A stretch of 64,000 nt of DNA from a phage. Below are positions 27,796 to 34,378 of the stretch, piece by piece; positions within the stretch are counted from its first letter, which is position 1; each line of letters opens with the position of its first letter. The notes beneath the pieces are model-generated. The model made no database searches, was not told where the DNA came from, and worked only from the letters and a program-made list of their open reading frames with translations. The stretch is from sequence record PZ019084.1; one strand, 5' to 3'. The position numbers and the translations under genes are program-made.

Positions 27796-28764
27796 TTATT
27801 TCAGAAGAGTAACCTCAGCGATTTCTTCCCAACCGTTTTTATCGGTCATAATAAAGTCAGCAAGATAAAGAGCAGTACGCAGTGAAACATTGCGTAAACG
27901 ATTAACATTAACTTTCATCCATGATAATGCTTTATAAGTTTCTTCATCAGAAAGACCGCGCTTTTGCATCATGTCAGTTGAAAGAATAACATCTTCAACC
28001 CTGACCATAATTTCTTCATTAGTGTGAACACCCAAATCCAAATAAACCGAGCGGGACACTAATGCTTGTAAATGTGGAGCAAGTTTAGTACCACGGTCTA
28101 ATTCGCGGTCAATGTCAACGTTTGTGATAAAAACAATCGTTCCTTTAAATTCAAACTCACGGTCAATGCCTTTTTCTTCTAAGTAAGAAGACGCAGTGCT
28201 CCAGCAGACTTTACGGGTCTCTCCAGTGTCCAGAGCGGCTTTTAGAAGATTAAGAATGTCCATATCAGAGAAAACATCCACATCATCAATCAAAAGGACA
28301 GAATTCTCTTCACGATTATTCCAAAGCTGCTCATAAAGACCAATACCAGAGATTTTACCATTAATACTTTTATATTCAATGTATCCAATATCATTTGCTT
28401 TATTTAAAGCTTTATCTAAAGAATACGTTTTACCAATACCTGCTGCGCCAGAGATAATCAATGAACGAATATTTCCGTTAATAATACCATTCGTCATCAT
28501 TCCCATAACATTAAATCTTTTATTAATGCGGGTTTTCATATCTTCATACGATTCTTTAACTTCCTCAACTTTTACACCATCATATGAAATATCTGATTTG
28601 TAAACCCAAACACCGCGACGTTTACCGTCAATTTCAACAAAAACTTTACCATCTCCTTGTGCATCTACCGGAGCATTATCTGGGAACCATTCGCCTAAGA
28701 GCTCAAAAGTTCCAGAGATTTCTTTACCGAAGTAGATACCCTTATTGATAGTTACAGTTTTCAT
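27796..28764 (-). CDS. P-loop NTPase, AAA-like (322 aa)
   Basis: Walker A GAAGIGKT, Walker B VLLIDDVD, sensor-like VFITN; start trimmed to MKTVTINK downstream of an early promoter. Confidence 0.65.
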   Translation of the reverse strand: MKTVTINKGIYFGKEISGTFELLGEWFPDNAPVDAQGDGKVFVEIDGKRRGVWVYKSDISYDGVKVEEVKESYEDMKTRINKRFNVMGMMTNGIINGNIRSLIISGAAGIGKTYSLDKALNKANDIGYIEYKSINGKISGIGLYEQLWNNREENSVLLIDDVDVFSDMDILNLLKAALDTGETRKVCWSTASSYLEEKGIDREFEFKGTIVFITNVDIDRELDRGTKLAPHLQALVSRSVYLDLGVHTNEEIMVRVEDVILSTDMMQKRGLSDEETYKALSWMKVNVNRLRNVSLRTALYLADFIMTDKNGWEEIAEVTLLK

Positions 28765-28788
28765 TTTATTCTCCAAATCCGTATCAGT

Positions 28789-28830
28789 TGATAGTTGTAT
28801 AGTACCATAAAGCTTTATGCTTGTAAACCG
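28789..28830 (-). promoter_or_regulatory. T4-type early promoter
   Basis: GTTTAC (28828-28823); conserved core repeat. Confidence 0.6.
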
Positions 28831-28860
28831 TTTTGTGAAAAAATTTTGAAATAAAAAAAG

Positions 28861-28878
28861 GGAGCCCGAAGGCTCCCT
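28861..28878 (-). terminator. CUUCGG tetraloop hairpin
   Basis: gggagcc-cgaa-ggctccc immediately after the NTase-like gene stop. Confidence 0.55.
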
Positions 28879-28879
28879 A

Positions 28880-29893
28880 TCATTTATAATAACTTCGGTG
28901 GTTTTCAAGATAAACCCTCTCAAGGAAGTCATCCCAGAAACCCATGTCTACTTTTTGCTGCATACCGTTCTTAGAAGCTTCAATGGATGCTGCTTCTACT
29001 TGATCGACCACATCTTCCAAAAACTCTTGAACAGTTTTAAATGGATGTTTACCCAGCTTCACGTCGAGAATAAATGGAGCGTCTTGAAGTGGATAGACTA
29101 AGTCACCAGTTTTGTAAATTTCCAATAGTTGGAGTCCACCACGACAAGCATGACTCAGAGCTTTCCAGTCAATGCCCTCATTCGCTTCAGCCTTACGAGC
29201 ACGTTCGCCATATTCAGCATCTAATTTATTCAGTGACTGTTTAAGCTCGATAAGAGAAAGCGTTGTTTGATATTTACGACCCAACACAGTGTAGAACGTT
29301 TGTGGGCCTGTTTTCTCATGATTATGGAATACCCATTCACAGAATTCGTTCTCTGGAAGACGATGCTTAATATCTTCAACTTTAGTTCGACGAAGTCTAT
29401 CAGGGATTCCTTCTTGATAATCAACCCACTGATCGGGGATTTGATTAACTACTTTCAATACATCACGCAATGCGGCCAAACGAGAACCCTTGACGCCGTA
29501 TTTAGAAGCTTGCTTGCGAACATATCCTAAATAGGATTTCATGTTAGTCGTATAAAAACGAGAACGATTGTCTTGAATAAACTTCCATACATCAGGCAAA
29601 TCAGATTTAACTACCAGTTCAGGTGGAGTGTGAAGCATATCCAATGCTACAGTTTCACCATCTGCTGCTAATTTAAAGAAATATTTAAGACTATATAGTT
29701 CATGGTCAATATCATCTTTAGTGTTTTTAGATGATGTATTGTTAGTGTTTTTGCTCATATGCTCTTTAACATTTCCGATAAGAATATCGCGAGCAGGAGG
29801 AACAAAGATTTCTTTAAAATCTACATCAGATTCTGGAGTAGAAGTTCCATAAAGATGACTACCAAAATAGCTTTTCATTACTGTTTTCATCAT
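28880..29893 (-). CDS. nucleotidyltransferase-fold protein (337 aa)
   Basis: Pol-beta-type NTase signature GSHLYGTSTPESDVDF (GS...DxD) plus downstream acidic residue; ATG overlaps upstream stop. Confidence 0.6.
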   Translation of the reverse strand: MMKTVMKSYFGSHLYGTSTPESDVDFKEIFVPPARDILIGNVKEHMSKNTNNTSSKNTKDDIDHELYSLKYFFKLAADGETVALDMLHTPPELVVKSDLPDVWKFIQDNRSRFYTTNMKSYLGYVRKQASKYGVKGSRLAALRDVLKVVNQIPDQWVDYQEGIPDRLRRTKVEDIKHRLPENEFCEWVFHNHEKTGPQTFYTVLGRKYQTTLSLIELKQSLNKLDAEYGERARKAEANEGIDWKALSHACRGGLQLLEIYKTGDLVYPLQDAPFILDVKLGKHPFKTVQEFLEDVVDQVEAASIEASKNGMQQKVDMGFWDDFLERVYLENHRSYYK

Positions 29894-30351
29894 TCAGCCT
29901 TATATTCAATAACAGGACATACTTTAGCTTTACGCGCTTTTAAAAATTCGACGATAATAGATTTCTTGGGTTGAATAGGAGGTAAACCCTTATACGCCCT
30001 ATCAATATTTTCTACATGTAAAGCATAATCCTTTTTCCATTTATAATCTTTATATTTTTCATGCAGTTGTGCAGGAATAACAAATGAACCAATAATAAGT
30101 AAAACAAGCAAAATGGCAAGTATAAATGCTGATGGAATAAGAGTCCATAAACTACCAAAAATAAGCCATTTCTGTATGATTTCTGCGCAGATAATAGTTA
30201 GACCTGCGAGCATAGTACATCCGAATAAAGAAACGAAAAATGTAGGGATAACAATAGACCAAAAATACGCGCACAGTGTCTTAGGTCGTTTCCATTCGTC
30301 GTTAAACATTTTGAATAATTTATAATGCCAAGAGTTTTCATTAATAATCAT
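29890..30351 (-). CDS. membrane protein (153 aa)
   Basis: Three predicted transmembrane helices, basic C-terminus. Confidence 0.6.
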   Translation of the reverse strand: MIINENSWHYKLFKMFNDEWKRPKTLCAYFWSIVIPTFFVSLFGCTMLAGLTIICAEIIQKWLIFGSLWTLIPSAFILAILLVLLIIGSFVIPAQLHEKYKDYKWKKDYALHVENIDRAYKGLPPIQPKKSIIVEFLKARKAKVCPVIEYKAE

Positions 30352-30353
30352 AA

Positions 30354-30875
30354 TTATCCTTTCATTGAAGGTGTAACAGTTGTTAAATACTTAATCATAG
30401 CTTCAGCTTCTGATTTTGATAATGAAATTTCTCCACTGTTTTGACGAATAGAAATAAAATCCGGATGACGGTCACCACCAGCTTTTAAAACACACATATA
30501 AGTATCAGTTTCATCTTCAATATCTGAAATGATTGAAGCAGTTCCGCATGAATGCGGTTTTTGATAAATCAATGCAGCTTTTCTTCCACCGTTTGACTGT
30601 TCATAAACTTTTAACACATCAAACAAATCACTTCTTTTATCAATAGCTAAGATGTTGTTTTCATCTTCAATGTTAAATCCTTCGGATACTTCATAAAGTG
30701 TCACCCATAAATCACCTATATCGATAGTAGCATTTACTTTTCCATGGCTTTCAAGAGCATGACAAATTTTCTTGATTTCGTCATAACTCATTTTAATAAT
30801 ATCATCTCCTTGAATAAGGAAGATGTCATTTTTAAATTCAACACGAATTAAACCACTTTCACTTGAAATAAACAT
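30354..30875 (-). CDS. hypothetical protein (173 aa), tandem paralogue
   Basis: C-terminal motif SEAEAMIKYLTTVTPSM shared with next gene. Confidence 0.55.
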   Translation of the reverse strand: MFISSESGLIRVEFKNDIFLIQGDDIIKMSYDEIKKICHALESHGKVNATIDIGDLWVTLYEVSEGFNIEDENNILAIDKRSDLFDVLKVYEQSNGGRKAALIYQKPHSCGTASIISDIEDETDTYMCVLKAGGDRHPDFISIRQNSGEISLSKSEAEAMIKYLTTVTPSMKG

Positions 30876-30881
30876 ATTTCC

Positions 30882-31439
30882 TCACTTTGAAATCATAGTT
30901 GGAATGACAGAATCAAGATAAGTCTTTAGCGCAATAGCTTCGTCTTTGGTAAATGTGACAATATGTGATCGAAAATCGTCAATTTGGCGAATAGTTAAGA
31001 CATCTCCCTCTTCATAACATTTTGATACATTTAAAAGAGTTTCATCATTCTGATTGCAAGCGTTAGTAATAATAGCATTGCAATTTTTGAGCCATTTTAA
31101 ACTATGTTTTCTTTCATTAGAATAATAAAAATATTTAATCTTAGCTATAAAACTATCCCAATGGATAACTGATAAACACATTGACTCACTGTTAATATTA
31201 AATCCTGGGCATGAAGAATAAAAATGAATTTTGTGCTCATCATTGATGCTTACTATTTTATCAGTATAAGGATATTCAATTTGGGTTAAATGAATGATTT
31301 CACTAGGCGTAAAATATAGCATATCGTCTTCTTGCGTCAAACGATACATGTTATTTACTTTTTCTATAGCCAATTCACCAAAAAGTGGACTAACTTCTAA
31401 TACCAATCGTTTCATATTGATTCTCTTCGACTCACTCAC
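30882..31439 (-). CDS. hypothetical protein (185 aa), tandem paralogue
   Basis: C-terminal motif KDEAIALKTYLDSVIPTM. Confidence 0.55.
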   Translation of the reverse strand: MSESKRINMKRLVLEVSPLFGELAIEKVNNMYRLTQEDDMLYFTPSEIIHLTQIEYPYTDKIVSINDEHKIHFYSSCPGFNINSESMCLSVIHWDSFIAKIKYFYYSNERKHSLKWLKNCNAIITNACNQNDETLLNVSKCYEEGDVLTIRQIDDFRSHIVTFTKDEAIALKTYLDSVIPTMISK

Positions 31440-31566
31440 AATTACATACTCCTTTGAATAGTATCAATAATGTTGTTCACCAGATTATAAGTAAACATTG
31501 GATAATTATATTGAATCATCACATACACAACAAACAAAACTTTCATTCTCTTCTCCTTGGCAGTTG

Positions 31567-31606
31567 ACAAGATTACTATACCATAACCTTGCCAACTTGT
31601 AAACAA
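31567..31606 (-). promoter_or_regulatory. T4-type early promoter
   Basis: GTTTAC (31604-31599) and TATAGT -10. Confidence 0.5.
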
Positions 31607-31769
31607 TTAAATGACGTTTTCAATAAAATTCTGAAGCTTTGTGTGAGCATCAACCATGATTTTCATTTCTTCCTTTGCGAAAGCTGTACCTCTTTCTCGA
31701 GCAGAATACTCATAGTCAGAAACTGCATTAGCATATTCTTCAATTAGCTTCATTAAAAACATCTGCTTT

Positions 31770-31964
31770 TCAGTTTTCATTATTCCACCTAATCATTTCA
31801 AGATATTGAACTAACTTAGCTTTGGATTTATCCAAATCCTTTTTAGCTGCTTCTATACCATCGTACGAATATCCTTCACAGTGCTCAACTGCCAATTGGT
31901 ATGAATCTATTTCAATATCACGTGCTAATTTAATGATTTTTTCAAACTGTTCACGTGTTAGCAT
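31770..31964 (-). CDS. hypothetical protein (64 aa)
   Basis: Small ORF. Confidence 0.45.
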   Translation of the reverse strand: MLTREQFEKIIKLARDIEIDSYQLAVEHCEGYSYDGIEAAKKDLDKSKAKLVQYLEMIRWNNEN

Positions 31965-31966
31965 AC

Positions 31967-32170
31967 TTAAACTCTCGTATTATGATCGATAATTTCATCA
32001 AGAAACATATCTAAAGCTTCTACAGCATTATCAACTTTAGCTTCAAGTTCTTCAGCACCTTTATTTGCAATGCCTGACGAAAACCAAGCAAAGTCACTAA
32101 GTTCCTCATCTGCTTTGCGAATTAAAGCTACCAATTCTTTAATTTTATCTGCTTGTTCAATGCTAATCAT
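31967..32170 (-). CDS. hypothetical protein (67 aa from MISIEQ)
   Basis: ATG overlaps upstream stop (TAATG). Confidence 0.45.
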   Translation of the reverse strand: MISIEQADKIKELVALIRKADEELSDFAWFSSGIANKGAEELEAKVDNAVEALDMFLDEIIDHNTRV

Positions 32171-32403
32171 TATTCCACCACATATGAAAGAGAGAATATT
32201 GCACACGCCATGTGAGTTGCAGCTTCATCACACATATCATAACGTTTCTTAAGAAGTTCTACAAGTTCTTCACTAGTAACGTCATCCATGTTGACGAAAA
32301 AATCACCATTAATGATGACGTAGATATTTCCTTCTTGATTAAGTGCTTCAATTTTCATGATGTTCTCCTCTTTATCCGATGGTTGTATAGTATCACAGCT
32401 CAA
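32170..32403 (-). CDS. hypothetical protein (77 aa)
   Basis: Small acidic ORF. Confidence 0.45.
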
Positions 32404-32432
32404 ATGGAAAGTAAACCGGTAAAATGAAAAAA

Positions 32433-32448
32433 GTCTCCCGAAGGAGAC
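32433..32448 (-). terminator. CUUCGG tetraloop hairpin
   Basis: gtctcc-cgaa-ggagac. Confidence 0.5.
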
Positions 32449-32453
32449 TATTG

Positions 32454-33986: not shown

Positions 33987-34175
33987 TTAGTCCTTAGTTA
34001 AATTTTCTAAATATGTTTCTAAATCATTTTCAGCTTTATCGATAGATTTTACTAATTCGTAATATGTTTCGGCATCTCCATAATCTGAAGCCGCTTCAAA
34101 AGATAAATCTCGTTCTAAACTAACAATTTCGCTGATTAAAAATCGTATTTCATTCTTTTGTTCGCGAGTAATCAT
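33987..34175 (-). CDS. hypothetical protein (62 aa)
   Basis: tk.1 position. Confidence 0.45.
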   Translation of the reverse strand: MITREQKNEIRFLISEIVSLERDLSFEAASDYGDAETYYELVKSIDKAENDLETYLENLTKD

Positions 34176-34378
34176 AAGGAATTTATATAATCAATAAGTT
34201 CTTGTTCTTTATCGTCGAAATCTTTACACAGTTCTTCGTATTCATCGGTATTAAAAGGACCGCATTCATCACAAACTTTTTCTAATTCATTGTTTTTATC
34301 CATAACTTCGTGAATAAGAGAAAATAGTCTGTCTTTTTGTTCTTTACTCAGACTCATAACCATGTAACCTTTAAGCAA
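34172..34378 (-). CDS. hypothetical protein (68 aa)
   Basis: tk.2 position. Confidence 0.45.
   Translation of the reverse strand: MLKGYMVMSLSKEQKDRLFSLIHEVMDKNNELEKVCDECGPFNTDEYEELCKDFDDKEQELIDYINSL

Follow-up and report, generated by a model that had tools for sequence, protein, structure and literature searches.

The two adjacent genes at positions 30354-31439 of the phage DNA analysed here (the 64,000 nucleotides of record PZ019084.1, hereafter the window) almost certainly encode diverged members of the MobD.1 (Y05I) family, i.e. proteins of 173 and 185 amino acids related by an old paralogy, and the conserved unit of this family is a C-domain of ~70 amino acids carrying a signature helix. 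Both genes, like all the features described below, lie on the minus strand (30354..30875 for the 173-aa protein, of the RB32ORF097c type and with an ATG start; 30882..31439 for the 185-aa protein, with a GTG start), and are separated by 6 nt in the open reading frame list. A sequence-only reading of the region had quoted the C-terminal strings of the two proteins, ...SKSEAEAMIKYLTTVTPSMKG and ...TKDEAIALKTYLDSVIPTMISK, as indicating a duplication; both are present as quoted and agree at 9 of 19 positions. Pairwise alignment extends the similarity beyond this short C-terminal stretch, and Smith-Waterman, Pfam and PHROG comparisons establish the paralogy over the entire length. Residues 3-171 of the 173-aa protein align with 16-182 of the 185-aa protein at 26-28% identity with a score of 92 (BLOSUM62, -11/-1), a value reached by 0 of 1000 shuffles (mean 31.0, sd 5.3, max 58; z = 11.5). 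Both proteins match PF24449 (T4_y05I_N, cut-off 24.9 bits; residues 2-95 with 113.4 bits in the 173-aa and 12-108 with 132.1 bits in the 185-aa protein), PF24448 (T4_y05I_C, cut-off 27; residues 102-171 with 82.5 bits and 113-182 with 74.9 bits, respectively) and, end to end, phrog_1502. Composition-adjusted BLASTP of one protein against the other gave no significant alignment, a false negative of that setting which is overruled by the shuffled Smith-Waterman scores and the Pfam matches. The similarity of the pair to mobD.1 was already known to the databases, where it is contained in the two Pfam families, in the RB14 record and in hundreds of phages.

The 185-aa protein is the orthologue of T4 MobD.1 (UniProt Y05I_BPT4, P39240), with 152 of 176 residues identical (86%), and it is the only one of the two to qualify as such. 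Its gene is flanked by mobD.2 and occupies the slot held by mobD.1 in T4, from mobD.2 to nrdC.11. The GTG start at 31439 coincides in position with the T4 start and is preceded, 9 nt upstream, by an AAGGAG sitting in the 3' end of mobD.2 (31442..31546; 34 aa, near-identical to T4 MobD.2); an alternative internal ATG at 31415 (177 aa) is annotated in some records. T4 MobD.1 is an early product, dispensable on laboratory hosts: mobD.1 falls in the early class for RNA and protein and its product has been detected by MS as Y05I_BPT4 (PMC9697503 supplement), and a T4 deletion spanning nrdC.11-mobD.3 is viable (PMC9825161). The literature on mobD.1, y05I, P39240, T4p097, RB69ORF104c, DUF7189 and PF24448 yielded no functional study. 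The 173-aa protein shares both Pfam domains with T4 MobD.1, the Pfam naming of whose family is a prediction, and its counterparts RB32ORF097c and RB14ORF98 (92.5% protein identity) include one that the RB14 record annotates as "similar to mobD.1". With 28-29% identity to MobD.1 and a branching position outside the clade of MobD.1 orthologues, it is a MobD.1 paralogue, not an orthologue. The mobD.1 gene upstream of RB14ORF98 is frameshifted beyond ~residue 127; otherwise RB14 shows no difference of substance from the window.

A neighbour-joining tree places the 173-aa type, together with P0044, outside all the MobD.1 orthologues of Tequatro-, Mosig-, Dhaka- and Gapriverviruses; the last three genera carry a single family copy, and P0044, which is 57% identical to the 173-aa type, is the sole family copy in its phage (L011). 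Because of the low identity within the pair, this deep branching and the occurrence of P0044 as sole copy, the pair derives either from an ancient duplication or from recombination stacking two old lineages. What stands of the duplication proposed from the sequence is therefore a homologous pair, whereas deep separate lineages at 26-28% identity do not fit a recent copy. A recent tandem duplication in situ, with the motif kept through shortness of time or because its DNA serves the next gene as a promoter or ribosome-binding site, would agree with the adjacency, common orientation and similar length of the genes, and promoters are known in the 3' end of T4 mobD.1 (PMC2988022). We nevertheless consider it very nearly excluded, and the tree, the conservation of the motif in proteins that stand alone in six further genera and the dN/dS values refute it: besides the identity being so low, the 173-aa type forms its own deep clade outside the orthologues of four genera, both copies are under purifying selection, and the codons differ at 4 of the 9 identical motif residues (gcg/gct, ctt/tta, gtc/gtt, cca/cct), which indicates that the motif is conserved at the protein level.

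Purifying selection maintains both copies, with dN/dS of ~0.1-0.4, similar to that of the membrane-protein gene downstream (0.10-0.26 for the 185-aa gene among Tequatroviruses, mostly 0.12-0.40 for the 173-aa gene); values computed with the upstream gene of phage bov10K1 are invalid, this being a different allele of different length. Full-length family members were found in 729 phage records and the 173-aa protein, at >=80% identity, in 434. The pair appears to be carried by most of the ~500 Tequatrovirus records, and with the membrane gene behind it, it seems to represent the normal arrangement of this genus. As far as searches show, the MobD.1 family, made up of acidic accessory proteins, would be confined to T4-like phages.

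The one new point to emerge from the locus is that a gene encoding the family C-domain lies directly before a membrane-protein gene. In the window the latter (29890..30351; 153 aa, phrog_944, RB69ORF104c / RB32ORF096c type) begins 2 nt past the stop of the 173-aa gene and encodes two long hydrophobic stretches; its RB32 counterpart, RB32ORF096c, is annotated as "similar to RB69ORF104c, replaces mobD". Homologues occur in 931 phage records, and the termini are conserved in 10 genera, with NxNSWHYKL...LCxYFW at the N-terminus and KARKxKxCPxIEY at the C-terminus. A C-domain gene stands directly upstream (<=21 nt) of the membrane gene in 10 of the 10 Tevenvirinae-type genera sampled and in one metagenomic phage; in the Aeromonas phage Assk, the membrane-protein homologue is preceded by a gene that was not detectable as a family member. 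Genes of 159 and 144 aa that follow stand-alone C-domains were considered as relics of the N-domain and rejected, since they are themselves membrane-protein homologues. The stop of the membrane gene is overlapped by the start of nrdC.11 (28880..29893), which encodes a nucleotidyltransferase of the RlaP family (PF10127, E = 3e-11; phrog_388) 100% identical to ime09 NrdC.11 and closes the predicted transcription unit. The best sigma-70 / T4-early-like promoter match of the region, TTTACA-17-TATAGT with TG (31575..31603; 10/12, a consensus match only), has mobD.2 as the first gene past it, and directly 3' of nrdC.11 an intrinsic-terminator-like hairpin (28859..28878; 8 bp, 6 GC, UUCG loop, T-run) parts the unit from nrdC.10. 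The suggestion that the pair may belong with a membrane/NTase/ATPase module is supported only in part: the membrane gene is adjacent in 10 genera, the link to the NTase is looser, and there is none to the ATPase nrdC.10 beyond the strong terminator. Between the membrane gene and nrdC.11 there are 0-3 other genes, and nrdC.11 is found in 1518 phage records versus the 729 with a full-length family member. Given the high general synteny of T4-like phages, however, adjacency alone is weak evidence for joint function. NCBIfam gave no match for the locus, nor did the PADLOC-DB HMMs at E <=0.1 for any of its five proteins.

T4 itself departs from this arrangement. Where the window has two family copies and then the membrane-protein gene, T4 has one MobD.1 copy followed by mobD, and it lacks the membrane gene while retaining MobD.1, nrdC.11 and nrdC.10. 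The T4 breakpoints correspond to positions 29895-30856 of the window, and in the T4-type records (47 of 502) mobD, a homing endonuclease gene, has taken the place of both the 173-aa gene and the gene for the membrane protein, making the locus a clean case of such a gene displacing two resident ones. Since MobD.1 is intact and expressed in T4, which has no copy of the membrane protein, the T4 MobD.1 cannot be strictly dependent on that protein.

The C-terminal motif is predicted to form the amphipathic helix of the third structural unit and to be the most conserved element across the MobD.1 family. In the 185-aa protein it covers K165-M182 (KDEAIALKTYLDSVIPTM; 30894..30947), with a helix at 165-178 in the model, and in the 173-aa protein K154-M171 (KSEAEAMIKYLTTVTPSM; 30363..30416), with a helix at 154-167. 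Residues K165, E167, A168, Y174, L175, V178 and M182 of the former are invariant in an alignment of 16 family sequences; when stand-alone C-domains are included (29 sequences), E156 and L164 of the 173-aa protein are invariant and Y163, V167, P169 and M171 nearly so. The same motif recurs in the stand-alone proteins, of 67-87 aa, from the six further genera, and in a natural hybrid, P0021, a MobD.1 N-part is followed by a C-part like that of the 173-aa type. In the predicted AF2 structures, DSSP assigns beta4-alpha, beta4-alpha, beta5-alpha to both proteins, and the strings of the two independent models agree; pLDDT is 85 for the 173-aa and a low 64 for the 185-aa protein, in whose low-confidence model DSSP does not assign strand 3 of unit 2. 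Each protein is thereby predicted to consist of three beta4-alpha units, the third being the C-domain. Units 1 and 3 are related at the profile level (hhalign 90%, E = 1.5e-6), and hhalign detected no relation of unit 2 to either.

From these models we lean towards a PC4/PUR-like fold. Foldseek searches of the PDB with the whole models retrieved, with the probabilities in brackets, 2nvn (0.89), SsgB (0.77), an SsgA-like protein (0.72) and MoSub1 (0.25) for the 173-aa protein, and EF_3132 (0.94), SP_0782 (0.44-0.63) and repeat III of fly and human Pur-alpha (0.85-0.87; target-normalised TM 0.59-0.66) for the 185-aa protein; nothing reached E <=0.001 in these searches, the best relevant E being 0.14-1.2 and the target-normalised TM 0.38-0.66. 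Sliding-clamp matches were disregarded (probability <=0.18, rmsd >17 A). Against viral models, Foldseek returned family members and uncharacterised phage proteins only, Pfam gave no PurA, PC4, Whirly or SsgA match at E <=1 for either protein, and PDB sequences searched with profiles of the family and C-domain alignments produced chance matches only (CsoS1D, E = 0.49; proteasome alpha-4, E = 0.3). A weak match in an exhaustive search, P0069 (2078 aa), is itself a Laminin_G/Glug repeat protein and thus spurious.

In the PC4-like protein Pur-alpha, repeats I and II combine into an intramolecular domain and repeat III pairs with its counterpart in another chain, and heterodimers of the paralogues Pur-alpha and Pur-beta through repeat III have been proposed. 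Like Pur-alpha (PURA), the phage proteins are predicted to have three beta4-alpha repeats, with units 1-2 forming one domain and unit 3 remaining a lone repeat, for which a partner would be required. The likeness is architectural only, there being no sequence similarity and no significant Foldseek score, and Pur-alpha binds nucleic acids whereas the phage proteins are acidic. Because the layout mirrors that of Pur-alpha, the C-domain may act as a helix-swapped pairing module that would give homodimers and, where both genes are present, possibly heterodimers; dimerisation through the C-domain, argued by this analogy, is in our view evenly balanced. Single-repeat PC4-like proteins of bacteria and phages (SP_0782, YdbC/DUF2128, EF_3132, the T5 PC4-like protein) resemble the stand-alone C-domains in having ~70 aa and a beta4-alpha unit, but they are ssDNA binders, whereas the phage C-domains are mostly acidic, have a fifth strand and show no sequence relationship to them. 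SsgA and SsgB, actinomycete cell-division activators of whirly-like fold, match the 173-aa model with probabilities of 0.72-0.77 but are trimers, unrelated to the phage proteins in sequence and biology.

Binding of single-stranded nucleic acid is made conceivable by the fold and by the Pfam label "putative transcription factor", though we judge it doubtful. In its full form this explanation has the proteins as classical PC4-like binders of ssDNA or RNA via their beta-sheets, serving as cofactors of early transcription, replication or RNA metabolism and perhaps supplying substrates to NrdC.11. The beta4-alpha-beta4-alpha topology of the models speaks for it, as do the best-probability fold matches, since SP_0782, EF_3132, Pur-alpha and Sub1 are ssDNA/RNA binders, and the predicted co-transcription with nrdC.11; PC4-like domains are generally nucleic-acid binders and phage T5 has one (PMC7549692). 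We hold it to be unlikely all the same. The family is acidic throughout, with a pI of 4.2-5.8 in its full-length members and a net charge between -3 and -22. Most of its invariant residues are hydrophobic, the others being Q, E and K, and the sheet bears no conserved basic or aromatic residue, a combination which argues against classical ssDNA binding. Moreover, SsgB, one of the fold matches, uses this fold to bind protein and not nucleic acid (PMC8061694), nrdC.11 is found in twice as many records as full-length family members, and the fold matches lack statistical significance.

Acidic, early and dispensable proteins would also suit accessory functions in an arms race, each copy binding or inhibiting a host protein (for example of defence or of the envelope), with the fold as a mere scaffold and with copies and alleles as diversification against variable host targets, without any heterodimer. 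The plasticity of the region, struck by a homing endonuclease, the existence of hybrid, truncated and frameshifted family forms, and the alleles of phages bov10K1, JK1 and TB37, 44-47% identical within one genus and mixed with the 173-aa type, are in line with this. On the other hand, dN/dS within each lineage is purifying and not diversifying, neither a PADLOC match nor functional literature was found, and the way the family genes strictly adjoin that of a single conserved phage membrane protein suggests a partner of the phage itself, so that we regard such a role as improbable.

The explanation that we prefer combines the paralogy, pairing through the C-domain and a membrane partner, and taken as a whole we give it about an even prospect. 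The family would act early in infection in concert with the membrane protein whose gene directly follows, a functional coupling that could equally well hold or fail. It is tempting to speculate further, at low probability, on a conserved two-gene early module of T-even phages, in which an acidic PC4/PUR-like single-repeat protein (the y05I C-domain), dimerised by helix swap, would dock on the cytoplasmic ends of a membrane protein that has at least two hydrophobic spans and in which Trp, His and two Cys are conserved. MobD.1-type proteins would then be only the second known architecture, after Pur-alpha, with both intra- and intermolecular PC4-like domains, and the Tequatrovirus pair the first asymmetric (heterodimeric) type II PC4-like domain, for recognition of protein rather than of nucleic acid. 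While the pair itself matters little, a dimerising adaptor with a membrane partner offers a testable idea for a family that has been labelled, speculatively, "transcription factor", and may be of some value for annotating the numerous uncharacterised early genes of T-even phages.

The window is a genome segment of a Tequatrovirus (T4-like), 97-98% identical over 29800-31700 to many Escherichia and Shigella phages, and its minus-strand genes keep the T4 order: tk, rI.1, rI, rI.-1, mobD.5 to mobD.2, two ORFs of 185 aa (30882-31439, minus strand, GTG start) and 173 aa (30354-30875, minus strand) lying 6 nt apart, a membrane-protein gene, nrdC.11 and nrdC.10. From an early-type promoter match upstream of mobD.2 (31603-31575, minus strand) to a strong terminator directly after nrdC.11, a near-perfect UUCG-loop hairpin (28859-28878, minus strand), genes are spaced by at most 6 nt or overlap; nrdC.10 lies on the far side of this terminator. 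Another near-perfect UUCG-loop terminator hairpin follows rI.-1 (32432-32449, minus strand), the two bracketing the mobD.5-to-nrdC.11 block, and the region has an excess of terminator-like sites (8 observed, 2.8 expected). The mechanical nrdC.10 ORF (378 aa, 27796-28932, minus strand) spans the first hairpin and overlaps nrdC.11; since its PHROG alignment begins at residue 57 and annotated homologues measure 322-325 aa, translation probably begins at the ATG near 28764. DUF7438 is another family of very small early proteins present here in several copies, matched in Pfam by five products of 57-79 aa (E = 1e-15 to 1e-19; mobD.2a, mobD.3, mobD.4, tk.2 and tk.3 types), whose minus-strand genes (31607-31780, 31770-31964, 31967-32206, 33987-34175 and 34172-34378) form two tandem clusters on either side of the tk-rI block.

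The 185-aa protein shares 86% identity with T4 MobD.1 (UniProt P39240, Y05I_BPT4), which is early by RNA and protein and has been detected by mass spectrometry (PMC9697503 supplement); a spontaneous T4 deletion of nrdC.11-mobD.3 is viable (PMC9825161). The sequence-only reading had proposed that the two ORFs share a C-terminal motif, which is found in both proteins, and the similarity proved to be full-length rather than confined to that short stretch, as Smith-Waterman alignment, profile matches and predicted structures all support. The alignment covers nearly the entire lengths with a score of 92 (1000 shuffles: mean 31, sd 5.3, maximum 58; z = 11.5), both proteins match Pfam T4_y05I_N (PF24449; 113 bits for the 173-aa and 132 for the 185-aa protein), T4_y05I_C (PF24448; 82 and 75 bits) and, end to end, phrog_1502, and their AlphaFold2 models present secondary-structure elements in identical order. 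Composition-adjusted BLASTP of the two proteins reported no alignment, a false negative. Of the nine motif residues that are identical, four are encoded by different codons, and therefore the motif is conserved at the protein level; conservation at the DNA level is refuted as its reason.

Paralogy is thus real, but the pair does not stem from a recent tandem duplication, as the 173-aa protein shares only 26-29% identity with any MobD.1 orthologue. A neighbour-joining tree places it with P0044 (57% identical), the sole family member of a metagenomic phage in which it occupies the same slot, outside the clade of Tequatro-, Mosig-, Dhaka- and Gaprivervirus MobD.1 orthologues; the last three genera carry one copy each. 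Because of this low identity, deep clade and single copies elsewhere, the pair is old by either of two routes: an early duplication whose copies were later lost differentially, or recombination that stacked two old lineages. Judged from dN/dS values of mostly 0.1-0.4, similar to those of the membrane gene, both copies are under purifying selection. The paralogy was already known at the annotation level, since the RB14 record labels the downstream gene "similar to mobD.1" (and the membrane gene "replaces mobD"). In that phage the upstream mobD.1 (L019 362-900) is frameshifted past about residue 127, the remainder of the protein going on in another frame.

The 173-aa gene occurs at an identity of at least 80% in 434 phage records, and the T4 arrangement in 47 of the 502 matching records. 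In T4, mobD stands in place of window positions 29895-30856, removing all but the first 19 nucleotides of the 173-aa gene together with the entire membrane gene, MobD.1 being kept without the latter. A hybrid gene, P0021 (179 aa; metagenomic contigs L007, 3001-3540, and L008-L010), seen on six contigs, joins a MobD.1 N-part to a 173-aa-type C-part, which suggests that the two copies have recombined. It is 95% identical to MobD.1 across the N-domain and takes the place of the pair, with the membrane gene and then nrdC.11 still downstream. In some Tequatroviruses the 173-aa type is preceded by an allele resembling that of Mosigvirus (44-47% identical); in that of bov10K1 (L020 352-894) the last 24 residues differ from the T4 type at only 1 position. 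Family fragments are present in other phages.

HMMER, run exhaustively against 1.84 billion representative proteins, retrieved only 30 clusters at E <= 0.001, a few of them full-length and many stand-alone proteins of 67-87 aa consisting of the C-domain alone, with the C-terminal consensus TKxEAxALVxYLNxVIPTMK. Across the whole family, invariant or nearly invariant positions fall mainly within the C-terminal helix, and hence the motif reads as the signature of the family; as the sequence itself shows, its conserved hydrophobic residues are spaced i, i+3, i+4, i+7, the pattern of an amphipathic helix. In Jiaodavirus (Klebsiella phage 15882-3-2) the gene immediately preceding the stand-alone C-domain encodes a 63-aa DUF7189 (PF23819) protein (L013 1093-1284), and DUF7189 weakly matches C-domain proteins and unit 1 of the 173-aa protein (residues 16-38; E = 3e-5 to 0.01). 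Neighbouring genes for single units may have fused to give the three-unit proteins.

The C-domain gene either runs into the start of a membrane-protein homologue or stops at most 21 nt short of it in Tequatro-, Mosig-, Dhaka-, Gapriver-, Moon-, Marfa-, Jiaoda-, Karam-, Kanagawa- and Tegunavirus and in the metagenomic locus L011, the upstream gene being a stand-alone C-domain in the last six genera. Upstream of the homologue in Aeromonas phage Assk, the gene is not detectable as a family member. Between membrane gene and nrdC.11 lie 0-3 other genes, and phage records number 1518 for nrdC.11, 931 for the membrane protein and 729 for full-length family members. On these grounds, the evidence backs the membrane protein as a partner in the suggested membrane/NTase/ATPase module, speaks weakly for the NTase (nrdC.11) and gives no support to the ATPase (nrdC.10), which lies beyond the terminator. 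The membrane protein, covered by no Pfam family, has two long hydrophobic stretches and conserved ends (NxNSWHYKL and LCxYFW at the N-terminus, KARKxKxCPxIEY at the C-terminus). In the window protein (29890-30351, minus strand) and its homologues (L003-L006, L011-L017) the Trp-His near the N-terminus is strictly conserved, as are two Cys, in LCxYFW and KxCP; these residues should lie on one side, the cytoplasmic one, and may therefore form a metal or redox site.

The AlphaFold2 model of the 173-aa protein (pLDDT 85; N-domain >90) comprises three beta4-alpha units, the third being beta5-alpha: unit 1 with strands 2-3, 10-15, 17-22 and 25-29 and helix 31-43; unit 2 with strands 49-53, 56-60, 67-70 and 75-78 and helix 81-94; unit 3 with strands 101-104, 113-116, 125-130, 140-145 and 148-153 and helix 154-167. 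The 185-aa model is weaker (pLDDT 64) and agrees with it. Profile comparison relates unit 1 to unit 3 (hhalign 90%, E = 1.5e-6) and detects no relation of unit 2 to either. Foldseek gave neither model a significant PDB match; the non-significant probabilities were 0.89 for 2nvn, 0.77 for SsgB, 0.72 for an SsgA-like protein and 0.25 for MoSub1 with the 173-aa model, and 0.94 for EF_3132, up to 0.63 for SP_0782 and 0.85-0.87 for Pur-alpha repeat III of fly and human (target-normalised TM 0.59-0.66) with the 185-aa model. The highest-probability matches all appear to share one superfold, of which we take 2nvn, from the SsgB structural literature, to be a member. In its predicted build, a two-unit N-domain plus a single-unit C-domain, the MobD.1 family matches Pur-alpha. 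A single PC4-like repeat probably does not fold by itself, no protein other than Pur-alpha is known to have both types of PC4-like domain, intramolecular and intermolecular, and for type II only symmetric homodimers are known (PMC7549692).

The family could be a true ssDNA or RNA binder, and the Pfam label "putative transcription factor" presumably derives from this fold class; counting against simple nucleic-acid binding, full-length members are all acidic (pI 4.2-5.8, net charge -3 to -22) and in the family alignments neither basic nor aromatic sheet residues are conserved. SsgB illustrates that a protein-binding use of the fold is possible (PMC8061694), and a further alternative is a host-protein binder within an arms race. 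The mechanism we propose instead is that the C-domain would serve as a pairing module of the PUR-repeat-III kind, forming homodimers and, wherever a phage carries both genes, possibly heterodimers, and that the MobD.1 family would act early in infection jointly with the membrane protein. Though real, the pair was already known from Tequatrovirus genomes and falls in an existing uncharacterised Pfam family; our analysis adds how old the divergence of the two copies is, the exact extent of the mobD replacement, and the conserved pairing of C-domain and membrane-protein genes together with a predicted Pur-alpha-like three-repeat build.
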